A DNA stretch of 54,109 nucleotides, taken from IMG/VR virus record IMGVR_UViG_2937142334_000003; one strand, 5' to 3'. This document shows positions 20,418 through 43,701 of the stretch, in pieces. Every line of letters starts with the position of its first letter. Within the stretch, counting starts at the first letter, position 1. Position numbers and translations under genes: made by a program. The notes beneath the pieces were generated by a model, which saw only the letters and a program-made list of their open reading frames with translations, made no database searches and was not told where the DNA came from. Origin of the DNA: a virus. Lineage: Duplodnaviria > Heunggongvirae > Uroviricota > Caudoviricetes.

Positions 20418-20620
20418 TGCTATATAAAATGTGAACAAATATAATCATCAATTTGTTTTGATTACACTTGAGAAAGAATTATATAGTTTTCCTTTCTTAA
20501 TTTTATTTACTACCGTCATCATTAGTGTTCTCATATCCTAACAAGAGGGTAATGACATTGACTAACTCTGATAGCTTCAGGGTGTAGCCCACCCCTTTAA
20601 TTTTCCTTATGCCAAAGCCA
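20418..20620 (-). ncRNA. Putative TnpB omegaRNA scaffold (right-end region)
   Basis: About 200 nt non-coding between tnpB stop and right end. Location follows from known TnpB biology; boundaries are approximate. Confidence 0.55.
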
Positions 20621-21758
20621 AAAGATTTTGAACTGCATTCTCATCACGATCCATAACTGCACCACACTCATAACAAATATATTCATTATGTTTGGTGTGA
20701 TGTTTTTGATTACCAGCTAATGTAATCTTATCTTCCTTAGTCTTGATGTGACCGCAGTCAGAACAACGTTGAGTACTAGGGTAGATTCTATCAGCCAAAA
20801 TAAGCTTCCTCCCATACCATTCACACTTATATGTGAGAACTTGACGGAAATAACCAAACATTGACCGTTGTAGTCCTTTAGAGGCCACATGACTCATCTG
20901 CATATTCTTAACTGCCAAGTCTTCAATCACAACTGTGTCATTTTCATTGATTAACTTAGTCGTAAACTTTTGAATCAAATCGTGCTGAATATTAGTAGCC
21001 TTACGATAATCACGTTGCAACTTGGCTTTCGTTACAAGATAATTATTACTTTGACTTGCTTCCTTACCATTCACTATTCGTTTACGGGCTAGTTGACGCT
21101 GATAGTGCTTGATGCGCTCATACAACTTACGCAATCTTTTAGGATAAGTATTAACCTTACCTTCTGTGTAATTCATATGTCCTACGTTGACATCGACAGC
21201 AGTTTTGAAATTAGTTGCAGGCTTTTTAGTGACATTCACTCCAAAAGGTAATGTTGCCCAATATTTATTATTTTCATGAAATACTGAAACAACTTTCAAA
21301 TCACCTTCTAATGACTTCGCGCCAACCATTTTAATATCTGCCCATTCTTTAACGCCTCGAGGTTTATCCAAGCGTAATTTCCCATTGACAACCTTGGCCC
21401 GATCAGTTTTAAAGCCCTGTCTTGGCTCTTTTTTAGACTTGAAATGTGGCATTCCCCAATCTGGCAAAGCTTTATTAAAAAAGTTTTGCCATGCTTTCCC
21501 TAAATCAGAAATTGCGAGTTGTAAGCAACGAGCTGAAAGATTATATTGCCAATCAGCCTTATCTGCCACTAGAGTATTACGTACTTTTCTTTCATTAGGA
21601 TATAATTTTTTGTCATCCATAATCAAAGATTCGTCATACATAGCGTTCCATAAGGCTAACCCTTGATTCCAGCAGTAGCGACGATAATCGCATAGTTTAT
21701 CGAGATGTTTTCTCATTGTCTGATTTGGATATAGTCTCACTATTTCTGTTCGTATCAC
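20607..21758 (-). CDS. tnpB: TnpB RNA-guided endonuclease (IS607 family)
   Basis: 383 aa; N-terminal HTH (RLYPN..MRKHL...RRYCWN), RuvC-I AVDVN, RuvC-II VIEDL, Zn finger CSDC..CYEC, RuvC-III DRDENA. Confidence 0.93.
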   Translation of the reverse strand: MIRTEIVRLYPNQTMRKHLDKLCDYRRYCWNQGLALWNAMYDESLIMDDKKLYPNERKVRNTLVADKADWQYNLSARCLQLAISDLGKAWQNFFNKALPDWGMPHFKSKKEPRQGFKTDRAKVVNGKLRLDKPRGVKEWADIKMVGAKSLEGDLKVVSVFHENNKYWATLPFGVNVTKKPATNFKTAVDVNVGHMNYTEGKVNTYPKRLRKLYERIKHYQRQLARKRIVNGKEASQSNNYLVTKAKLQRDYRKATNIQHDLIQKFTTKLINENDTVVIEDLAVKNMQMSHVASKGLQRSMFGYFRQVLTYKCEWYGRKLILADRIYPSTQRCSDCGHIKTKEDKITLAGNQKHHTKHNEYICYECGAVMDRDENAVQNLLALA

Positions 21759-40907: not shown

Positions 40908-42935
40908 TTAGAGCATGAAGTAAGCATAATTATTAGATGCTTCTTCTTTTAATTCTTTTTCTAATTCATTTGCATAGTAATTACAGTAAGCAATCGAACT
41001 GTACCTATCCTTAGTCGTTGTTCCGACTTCGTAAATCTTGATATATCCAGTTCTAACGGTATATTCAAGGTTTACCAATTCGTTGACCAATGCAGTCGCT
41101 TGAACATATGGATATAAGACCTTAATTTGTTCTTCGGCCGGCAACTTTCGATATTCCTTATCTTCCTGTAATTCTTCGCGCTTTTGAATGTCATTCATAG
41201 GTAATCTGAGTTTTCCAGATTCAATGACATTCTTTAGGGAAACTGCAATTTCGTGGTTGAAAGCCGCATTTGCCTTAACCGTATATACACATTTAATTCC
41301 CTTAGTTTTTGTTCTATCGTTTGTTTCGTCATCATTGATACAAGCCCAGGCTGGATATTCTATATCACGATCTTTATCTGTAAGGACGGTTGTACAAGCA
41401 TCAAATACTCCTAACCCATTACCATTCGCATCCATAACTACATAATCAGCTTCAAAATCGTAATATAGTTGTTTTAAACGAATAGCTAAGTTCTCCGAAG
41501 AAATTGACTCTTGAATACTTTCCAAATAGACAACCTGGCGCTTATATTCATCACCCTCACGAATTAACCTCATCAACGTAAATGCTGATGTATCGTTCTT
41601 AACGAGCTTATTTCCACCCATTAAGGCAATATCAAGGGCTACTATTCTAATTTCATTTACTTTATCGACACGTTTGAAATTCGATAACGTTCTAGGCTTT
41701 GATCTATGCTGATTCTCAACAAATTCTTGATTTGTAGGTGGCCTAAATGTCTTTCCCACCGTTCTAGTCTTGTTCAACGGATCAAGTTTAAAATAGGCTT
41801 TATCACTTTCTCCAACGAATATGGCTTCATATTCCATATCAAAACTTGTTTGATCGAATGTGTCACTTGTTCTTTCAGCATCAACCGCACTTTGTGAAAG
41901 CAATCCACTTTTGATTGACAGCTGATATGGAAGTATGGCAACAAAATAACGCTTATCTGAACTCGTCATCTTGTTGAAATAATTCTTGAATTCGTCCCAT
42001 ATCCAGTGAGATTTATACCAAGCAGACGAAATATAAATCTGCTTGTTCTCTTCTCGCTTTAAATGACTATATTCTGGTTTTGATAAATAAGGTGGCTGAC
42101 GGTAAACATTAAGCATTGGCTTTAGAATCTTGTCCAATGTTTCTTTCTTAATCAGACGAAACTCATCACAGATTAAGATATTACAACGTAAACCACGAGC
42201 ACTTTCACCTGAAGTTGCAGCAAAGATTCTTGATCCATTTTTGAATTCTACCTTTGCCTCATTTATCGTTGTTTTAATATGATCCTTTTTATTACCTATT
42301 TCGTATCTAACTGCTGCTGATTGATCATAAAAATCTACTATCTTTTGTGAAATTATATTTGCTGCCTGTCCTTTTGTTCCGCTCGATAGAACAATCTTTG
42401 TTCCGGGGTACAAAATACACCGAACAATACAGTACAAAGCAATAATCCAACTTTTTCCTTTGATTTTGTTAACATAGATGCTTTTTATCATCTACTTCTT
42501 ATGGTTTCCCATAAGTTCGGCATAACTTTTCACCTACAACGTTACTTGTTTAGGGTGGCGGCCTCGTGGCGATGTTATATTCTCATATGAGGTTCTTTCG
42601 CTATGCTCTGCCCCTGACTAGGTTTTTGATCTAGCCTTCGGTTCTGATTACCATATCATTAGACTTAGGCTTCCAGCTTAATTCCGCCATTCCACACAAT
42701 ATTTCTATTGATCGGGGCAAGGTATTCTTGTTCGCCCCCGAGCAGCTATGTACATGAAGAAATCAACCTTATTCATCATGTAAAACAATAATTTCTGATA
42801 TAGTTTTAGATCTATACCTAAGTAATCTTTTACGAATATCTGCGGATTCCTTCGCCAATATCCGACCCATTTCATTAAGTTTCTTTCTCTCTTTTGAAAG
42901 TAGCTTACTCTTTCCTGTGTCTTCTTAGTCTTCAT
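40908..42935 (-). CDS. terL: Terminase large subunit, two exons (42935-42734 and 42460-40908; 584 aa spliced)
   Basis: Joined Walker A AARGQGKSW; Walker B ILICDE; nuclease motifs VALDIAL, VMDANG, KDRYSS. Confidence 0.9.
42461..42733 (-). ncRNA. Group I intron (273 nt, no ORF) in terL
   Basis: P2 CAAUA-GAAA-UAUUG; P3 UGGCGG/CCGCCA; P4-P6 with AA joiners; P7 GCAUA/UAUGC; P7.1-type extension; P9 CUUAUGG-GAAA-CCAUAAG; IGS CCUUGCCCC. Exact junctions are inferred. Confidence 0.85.
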
Positions 42936-43701
42936 AGAGACTTTCGACCTCCTTTTCAGAGGCCCTTCCAAAAGTTCTCTTCATAGGAATTACAAACCAC
43001 TTATTAATATATTTCTTTAATCCAGCAGTATCTTCGTACTTATCACTGTCTGGTACTGGTTCATTCAGCTCCCAGGCTTGAATTCTTTGCCCTAATGATT
43101 TTCCACTGTCATCATTCCCACTAAGTACAGCATCAAACCCTAAATCCTTTGAATCTTCTGAATATGCTTTACGTAAGGCAGTGATCGCCTTAGAGTCCCC
43201 ATCCATAAACGCCTTATCCAATGCGTCCTTCAACTTTACATTGGCAACATATCTCTGAATCTCAAATGCCGTTGTTGCCGGTTTAATTGCAATAAGACCT
43301 TGTAGCACATTCTCAAAATAAGCATATTCTTCTTCGTTATATCCCTTACCCCATCTACTTTCTAATTCGGGGGTAATGCTTACTGTTTCCTCGGCATGAT
43401 CTGTTGTGAATACAGAATCAGAGAAGGTCTTGAAATTCTTATACGGAGCTATTTTCTTTAAGTATTCTCCAAAATTAGGATTCTTACTTGTTCTCTTTAC
43501 ATCGATGTAAAGGTTCTTGACAAAGGGAACATTTGCGAACTGTGCCATTTCAATAACCGAATCCTCATTACTAAAATCAGCTACCGTATTGGCACAATCA
43601 CGACAAATAGAAAAACCATTGTCGAATAATAAGTTCTTGTGTCTTAAAAGTTGGTTAGACCTTTTTTCTTTACCACAGATGACACATATTTTCCCTGCCA
43701 T
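42925..43701 (-). CDS. Zn-finger protein upstream of terL, candidate terminase small subunit (YonG-like)
   Basis: 258 aa; CxxC...CxxC N-terminus; overlaps terL start. Confidence 0.55.
   Translation of the reverse strand: MAGKICVICGKEKRSNQLLRHKNLLFDNGFSICRDCANTVADFSNEDSVIEMAQFANVPFVKNLYIDVKRTSKNPNFGEYLKKIAPYKNFKTFSDSVFTTDHAEETVSITPELESRWGKGYNEEEYAYFENVLQGLIAIKPATTAFEIQRYVANVKLKDALDKAFMDGDSKAITALRKAYSEDSKDLGFDAVLSGNDDSGKSLGQRIQAWELNEPVPDSDKYEDTAGLKKYINKWFVIPMKRTFGRASEKEVESLYED

Follow-up and report, generated by a model that had tools for sequence, protein, structure and literature searches.

The interrupted Walker A codons of terL

The DNA analysed here, IMG/VR record IMGVR_UViG_2937142334_000003, is a Caudoviricetes stretch of 54,109 nucleotides (nt), which we refer to as the window. 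The close relatives of this element are ~130-kb Limosilactobacillus reuteri plasmids, namely p53608_1 of strain ATCC 53608 and the plasmids of YLR001 and FN041. On the minus strand of the window, the gene for the large terminase subunit, terL, is divided between two open reading frames (ORFs). The ORF at 42971–42705 reads ...FFMYIAARG and then meets a stop codon, while the ORF at 42491–40908 contains ...KGKSWIIALYC. Since uninterrupted relatives read IIAARGLSKSW (Lysinibacillus phage LC76P1), YLASRGQGKTW (SPbeta YonF) and FIASRGLGKSW (phiCD211), the two ORFs represent the halves of one terL that is cut inside the P-loop. The interruption is a 273-nt segment, which comparison with related phages identifies as a group I intron lacking the usual base at each of its two splice sites (Table 1).

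Removal of this segment would join exon 1 to exon 2, which opens with AA GGA AAA AGT TGG and reads (Q)GKSW, and would yield a TerL of 584 residues with the Walker A motif restored as AARGQGKSW. The start of exon 1 (MKT...) is also present in the relative L067, and the exon 1 homologues of all relatives end in AARG. Exon 2 matches Pfam Terminase_6N with 23.1 bits and exhibits 43–46% identity to SPbeta YonF and the LC76P1 terminase over 96% of its length. With the motif A-x-R-G-x-G/S-K-S/T re-formed by ligation and the homology extending over the full length, the predicted product is a TerL of the SPbeta YonF type. A split TerL, with the second part translated from the ATG at 42491, was considered and rejected, as in ATCC 53608 this ATG and GKS are in different reading frames.

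The splice junction was deduced from intron-less alleles among the close relatives, using a TerL search of IMG/VR that comprised 49 loci. Because the 12 intron-less alleles inspected all read GGN CAR GGN AAR, encoding IAARGQGKS, the spliced product must be AARG-Q-GKS. The junction consequently lies one base into the Gln codon: exon 1 ends with C42734, the intron with A42461, and exon 2 begins with A42460. Different bases on the two sides of the boundary prevent it from sliding. All seven length-preserving registers were enumerated, and C/AA (the slash denotes the splice junction) alone gives Gln; the registers ending in G were rejected, since their products are AARGRRKS or AARGRTKS. An earlier start of exon 2 was ruled out in YLR001, where an in-frame UAA is located directly upstream of AAGGG.

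The internal guide sequence pairs with both exons at this junction. In helix P1, which comprises 5 base pairs (bp), the GCCCC of the guide (42714–42718) pairs with GGGGC of exon 1 (42734–42738), placing a C42734-G42718 pair at the cleavage site. In P10, which comprises 4 bp, CCUU (42719–42722) pairs with AAGG of exon 2 (42457–42460), and the two helices are contiguous on the guide. Furthermore, guide and exons change together among the relatives: in the type A introns described below, CUG-GCCU pairs with AGGU/CAG, and in the window CCUU-GCCCC pairs with GGGGC/AAGG. This covariation provides independent support for the junctions.

The core helices P3–P9 of the predicted group I fold follow one another in the canonical order. 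In an alignment of 17 introns, P2, P3, P6, P6a, P7.1, P9 and P9.1 covary, with two to six canonical pair types per position, and 62 of the 63 modelled pairs in the window intron are canonical. P7 consists of a closing pair, G42608-C42519, the bulged A42607, and the guanosine-binding pair G42606-C42520. The guanosine-binding pair is G-C in 17/17 introns, whatever the last intron base, and the idea of an A-U pocket accepting A was rejected on this count. A blastn search with the 3' half of the intron matched 214 phage records at 60–90% identity (mostly 80–90%), and every match inspected corresponded to a gap inside a terminase or portal gene. This agreement is well above what chance would produce. 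Rfam RF00028 (Intron_gpI) gave 13.7 bits (E = 0.72) over P4-P5 only, below the 50-bit gathering threshold; this sub-threshold score says little about the fold. Single-sequence folding of the intron was unremarkable (z = -1.74). RNAalifold alone did not recover P7, which was imposed by hand and then checked by pair counts. The support for the group I fold is comparative, not thermodynamic. On this comparative footing, 42461–42733 is a bona fide group I intron of a widespread Firmicute-phage lineage, assigned to the phage IA subgroup because the P7.1/P7.2 insert is present.

Table 1. Features of the terL locus in the window. The intron index equals 42734 minus the window position.
Feature	Position	Strand	Remarks
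terL exon 1	42734–42935	minus	67 codons plus C of the Gln codon; ends ...FFMYIAARG + C
terL exon 2	40908–42460	minus	AA of the Gln codon, then GKSW..., 516 codons, stop
Group I intron	42461–42733	minus	273 nt, no ORF; first base G42733, last base A42461 (omega position)
Internal guide sequence CCUU-GCCCC, CCUUGCCCC	42714–42722	minus	pairs with both exons
P2 hairpin, GAAA loop	42697–42710	minus	3–5 canonical pair types per position
P3	42684–42689 with 42556–42561	minus	covariation
P4	42673–42676 with 42644–42647	minus	inside the partial Rfam match (P4-P5)
P5	42668–42670 with 42650–42652	minus	inside the partial Rfam match (P4-P5)
P6	42640–42641 with 42613–42614	minus	covariation
P6a hairpin	42616–42636	minus	compensatory G-C to A-U change within the clade without terminal G
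P7, 5' strand	42602–42608	minus	G42608, bulged A42607, G42606, CAUA
P7, 3' strand UAUGCC	42519–42524	minus	pair counts
P7.1	42598–42601 with 42569–42572	minus	IA-type insert
P7.2 hairpin	42582–42591	minus	IA-type insert (P7.1/P7.2 = 42569–42601)
P8	42531–42555	minus	alignment and pair counts
P9, GAAA loop	42498–42515	minus	covariation
P9.1	42474–42495	minus	covariation
3' tail GUUAACAAAAUCA	42461–42473	minus	A42461 in the alignment column of the canonical relatives' omega-G

A U.G pair at the 5' splice site and a terminal guanosine (omega-G) are the textbook sequence hallmarks of group I splice sites. The window intron has neither: the cleavage-site pair is C42734-G42718, as it is C-G in five related introns at the same site, and the intron ends with A42461. 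When it is aligned with canonical sister introns, C42734 falls in the column of their U and A42461 in that of their terminal G. The splice sites of the sisters in Javan576, CHPC1042, CB457P1 and YLR001 (intron 2) are set by the reading frame. Those of Javan576 read GGGGGU/GAAAUAG...AACAAAAUUG/AGC, and the canonical sisters in portal and terL genes end with the same ...AACAAAAUUG/. The G nearest to the junction in the window, G42458, gives AARGRRKS if the length is kept and AARGRKS if the 5' site is kept. A candidate P9.0 is available just before the last base, where U42463-C42462 can pair with G42518-A42517. Of 19 tabulated sequences, 11 could form a 2-bp P9.0 of this kind, in which AG of J7/9 pairs with the CU that precedes the last base; the register in the window would be GA with UC.

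Coding requires the C at position -1: the invariant Gln codon begins with this base, and replacing it by U would produce a UAA or UAG stop. Any intron in the C/AR register must therefore keep a C-G pair at the cleavage site. As read from the codons, protein coding, not odd chemistry, accounts for the C.

The first-pass annotation of this DNA had described a compact, ORF-less intron of 273 nt in the terL Walker A codons, with P2, P3, P4–P6, P7, a P7.1-type extension, P8 and P9. It had also named the junction GGGGC/AAGG, a guide at 42714–42722 pairing with both exons, a C-G pair in place of U.G, an A in place of omega-G, a normal G-C guanosine site in P7, and the absence of a usable G nearby. 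Each of these proposals holds in the present analysis. The second register that it entertained, giving AARGKGKS, does not, because every close intron-less allele has Gln (CAA or CAG) at this position and P1 and P10 fit the Gln register only.

Related introns and gene context

The Walker A codons of relatives harbor introns in three registers, designated types A, B and C. Type A introns are inserted between GGN and CAR, one base upstream of the type B site. Those of L007 (ATCC 53608), L010 (FN041), L016 and L019 have A as their last base, and those of L030, L031 and L037 have G. Type B introns share the register of the window, after the C of CAR, and have C at -1 in 6/6 sequences (the window, L067, L009 from YLR001, L014, L068 and L038). 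The last base differs among them: the window and L067 have A, L009, L014 and L068 have U, and L038, from L. ingluviei DSM 15946, has G. The third register, type C, lies between GGN and AAR; its representative in L026 is canonical, and a mini-exon of 6 nt sets it apart from a type A intron. The TerL of L. ingluviei is only 66% identical, yet its intron occupies the same site and has C at -1. The C is thus an old state, and since the L. ingluviei intron ends in G, it is compatible with an otherwise canonical intron.

The locus appears as a hot spot in several further arrangements. The tandem introns of L026 (1952–2500; also present in L027 and L028) flank the mini-exon CAAGGU, and both of those in L026 have U at -1 and a terminal G. 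The type A intron of L019 (352–1452), which ends in A, carries a homing-endonuclease ORF in its P1 loop. Its flanking exon bases (AGAGGT / CAG) match L. reuteri donors and not its own intron-less siblings L020 and L021, which read CGGGGG CAA; from these bases, the flanks look like co-conversion from a recent homing event. The YLR001 plasmid possesses a second terL intron (L009, 925–2047) of ~1.1 kb with an 879-nt endonuclease-like ORF, which is absent from the window. This intron lies after ...LASG, 27 codons downstream of Walker A, and has canonical sites (GGU/...ACUG/); the same split is observed in L012, L013, L014, L022 and L068.

Wider scans added little to this set. A scan of genome contigs with TerL returned three loci and no further intron carrier (two of them repeat L007 and L038, and the third, L071, has no intron), and the additions from 401 genomes of the nearest genome's family were all intron-less. 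A metagenome scan with the type B pattern gave two useful loci and one chance match (L066).

The structural module next to terL consists of long, intact ORFs. Directly upstream of terL, and overlapping its start, lies an ORF of 258 residues (42925–43701, minus strand) with an N-terminal CxxC...CxxC and no Pfam match; by its position, it could be the small terminase gene (yonG-like). In the middle of the structural-gene block, a full-length match to the Rfam Transposase-1 RNA (RF03014, 68.3 bits) occupies 20516–20574 on the minus strand, just downstream of an ORF of 383 residues (20607–21758, minus strand). This region is probably an insertion element within the phage module.

Upkeep of the intron and the case for splicing

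The way in which the intron and its host gene have been maintained suggests that the window intron probably still splices without U.G and omega-G. The five type B introns that lack the terminal G have diverged by 5–15%, and 11 of their helix pairs vary, five by compensatory changes, four by one-sided changes that remain canonical, and two with a mismatch. Because the variable pairs are mostly compensatory or canonical, the fold has been preserved during this divergence. No stop codon or frameshift is found in the terL genes of about ten carriers, and terL is under strong purifying selection. The ratio of nonsynonymous to synonymous divergence (dN/dS) of terL is 0.030 between the window and L067, 0.034 between the window and L009, and 0.013 between L009 and L014; across all pairs with dS above 0.15, it ranges from 0.01 to 0.10, and in the carriers from 0.01 to 0.06. 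The dN of terL, 0.02, is 6–7 times lower than the divergence of the introns at unpaired sites (0.125–0.15). Provided that intron and exons travelled together, this low dN indicates that TerL remained constrained while the introns without G diverged. Furthermore, every intron without G has a P10 of 3–4 bp contiguous with P1, and P10 varies from 0 to 6 bp in the G-ending sisters.

Several observations weigh against this interpretation. The guanosine pocket in P7 is an unaltered G-C pair, with no compensating change of specificity. In mutants of the Tetrahymena and T4 td introns, a C-G pair at the cleavage site slows the first step, and exon ligation is almost lost when the terminal G is changed to A; poor splicing is therefore expected of an intron that combines both changes with a normal G-C pocket. 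The terminal G has been lost at least twice, only among L. reuteri-type elements, which could equally fit relaxed selection for packaging in a plasmid lifestyle. The introns have diverged by 0.13, against 0.57–0.74 at the synonymous sites of terL in pairs that include the window. Since the introns are less diverged than the synonymous sites, they moved between terL alleles, or gene conversion took place; part of the exon divergence would then predate the introns, and the dN/dS argument is weakened accordingly. Recombination between introns could also mimic compensatory change. Finally, the candidate P9.0 is no longer than 2 bp, and the window has it in a register not shared by most relatives.

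Some of these observations would be expected if the intron were real but splicing-dead, or nearly so, in which case the element would make no functional TerL and persist as a plasmid only, packaging-defective and recently disabled. Omega-G mutants of model introns reportedly do not ligate exons, the pocket shows no adaptation to another base (G-C in 17/17), and the terminal G disappeared in the phage-plasmids that are able to persist without packaging. Homing also spreads introns at the DNA level regardless of splicing, as the co-converted flanks in L019 illustrate. We nevertheless regard a dead intron as unlikely, given the uninterrupted terL of the carriers with its low dN/dS, the dN 6–7 times below the intron divergence, and the compensatory changes that keep the helices paired in the clade without G. 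The guide still matches both exons exactly, and the adjacent structural genes are intact. The same G-less intron is also present in at least four diverged terL backgrounds, a distribution that needs repeated co-residence and is hard to achieve without transfer. Moreover, natural introns without omega-G splice elsewhere (PMC6545197). Taken together, these comparisons make splicing without U.G and omega-G appear more likely than a dead intron. The first-pass annotation had posed the choice between an unusual active chemistry and a dead intron; the part of the first branch that invoked chemistry for the C gives way to coding, and the second branch is disfavoured by the compensatory changes and the selection on terL. 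The regulatory throttle on DNA packaging that it also suggested is speculative.

Two further explanations concern the identity of the splice sites themselves. G42458, which lies three bases inside exon 2, might serve as the terminal G in the second step and leave a P-loop one residue shorter, AARGRKSW. Every G-less intron at this locus does have a G exactly 3 nt downstream, in an exon reading CARGG, and model introns with a mutated terminal G are said to use the next G. This is very unlikely here, because all homologues, distant ones included, keep the 8-residue spacing A-x-R-G-x-G/S-K-S/T, and the invariant Gly that precedes Lys would be missing from the product. The site indicated by P10 and the candidate P9.0 is 42461/42460, and the exon bases that this route would excise (AAG or CAG) are conserved as sequence encoding Gln-Gly. 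A sequencing or assembly error masking a true U at -1 and a true terminal G, which the first-pass annotation had named as a possible refutation, has a negligible probability. Independent assemblies repeat both oddities, with C at -1 in six sequences and a non-G end in ten, and since these come from isolates as well as metagenomes, such an error is in practice excluded. A true U at -1 would also put an in-frame UAA in the spliced mRNA.

For the favoured reading, in which the intron splices, we infer the following course of the reaction from the pairing scheme. In this terL of an SPbeta-like L. reuteri phage-plasmid, 5' cleavage would occur at the C-G pair, after the first base of CAA. The 3' cut after A42461 would be placed mainly by P10, whose 4 bp are contiguous with P1 on one guide, and the 2-bp P9.0 possibly helps to place it, instead of the docking of a terminal G into the G-C pocket. 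C42734 would be joined to A42460, restoring the P-loop, and the expected ligated RNA would run from ...GGGGC to AAGGAAAAAG.... Splicing would probably be less efficient than in the canonical sisters.

A broader reading, which we put forward tentatively from the comparison of these sequences, is that the terminal guanosine no longer governs the choice of the 3' site in this lineage. At one junction, fixed by P10 and P9.0, the last base could be A, U or G alike, a C-G pair would work at the 5' site, and slow splicing may act as a brake on terminase output, such that the plasmid avoids cutting its own pac site. If this is true, the sister introns ending in G, A and U constitute a natural allelic series for the second step of group I catalysis.

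Significance and comparison with known introns

An essential gene of a gut-commensal phage-plasmid here depends on an intron that has neither hallmark, and the otherwise nearly identical ribozymes of close relatives carry G, A or U as the last base. If the intron is spliced, it provides a natural experiment on second-step site choice without guanosine docking and a case of protein coding overriding ribozyme optimality. If it is not spliced, it marks how a phage-plasmid loses its phage half.

Introns of this kind are prone to escape annotation. The 2025 group I intron database was built from Rfam matches and takes only introns preceded by U (PMC11835236). Owing to this U filter, and because the Rfam model misses the lineage, introns with C at -1 and this phage lineage are systematically missed, with the result that terL is annotated as two 'hypothetical' fragments. 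Since databases require U at -1 by construction, such introns may be more frequent in phages than published accounts indicate. Our limited literature search found no precedent for a phage intron failing a hallmark, nor for one intron without both, and nothing specific on the induction of L. reuteri phage-plasmids.

The nearest known systems are the canonical sisters, namely the terL intron of Streptococcus thermophilus phage CHPC1042, the portal intron of Streptococcus phage Javan576, the second terL intron of YLR001, and the L. ingluviei DSM 15946 intron. They share with the window intron the P3–P9 core, the P7 strands G(a)GCAUA and UAUGCC, P7.1/P7.2, the P9 GAAA hairpin, P9.1 and the AACAAA tail. 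Their 3' halves are 75–85% identical to that of the window intron, and their guides are of the same kind. The L. ingluviei sister even has the identical C/AR site and the same C-G 5' pair. In contrast to the window intron, which has neither hallmark, all of the sisters end in G, and all but the L. ingluviei intron have the U.G pair. The large-terminase gene of Lactobacillus delbrueckii phage LL-H also carries a group I intron, reportedly with canonical splice sites.

Outside phages, the 23S intron of Coxiella burnetii is said to have A as its last base, to possess an ordinary 5' site, and to splice in vivo and in vitro. It is reported to be an intron that 'lacks the canonical Omega G', and the title of the report describes it and a second intron as 'self-splicing' (Raghavan et al. 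2007, J Bacteriol 189:6572). The Coxiella and window introns are both natural introns with a non-G end. The former resides in an rRNA, belongs to another subgroup and is a single fixed case, whereas the latter interrupts a protein-coding phage gene, its last base varies among A, U and G in relatives, and the U.G pair is missing as well. The hexacoral ND5-717 intron, which also lacks the terminal G, produces perfectly ligated exons in vivo, at a yield >10-fold lower than a canonical intron of that genome achieves (PMC6545197). Unlike the window intron, it is a giant, vertically inherited organellar intron that involves back-splicing or host help, and the two are unrelated in sequence.

The 5' site has its own counterpart in two fungal mitochondrial introns, which have C-G for U.G, as in the window, differ from it in subgroup and host, and reportedly keep omega-G. 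The title of the study describing them states the C.G 5' pair and asks whether selection is at the protein level (Hur & Waring 1995, Nucleic Acids Res 23:4466). In the terL introns analysed here, such protein-level selection for C is shown, because a U would make a stop codon. Regarding the 3' end, the first-pass annotation had treated omega-G as near-universal; its absence is indeed rare, but not unprecedented, as the statement quoted for the Coxiella intron and the ND5-717 case indicate. Accordingly, each oddity of the window intron has a published precedent, and their combination in one phage intron is what appears to be new.

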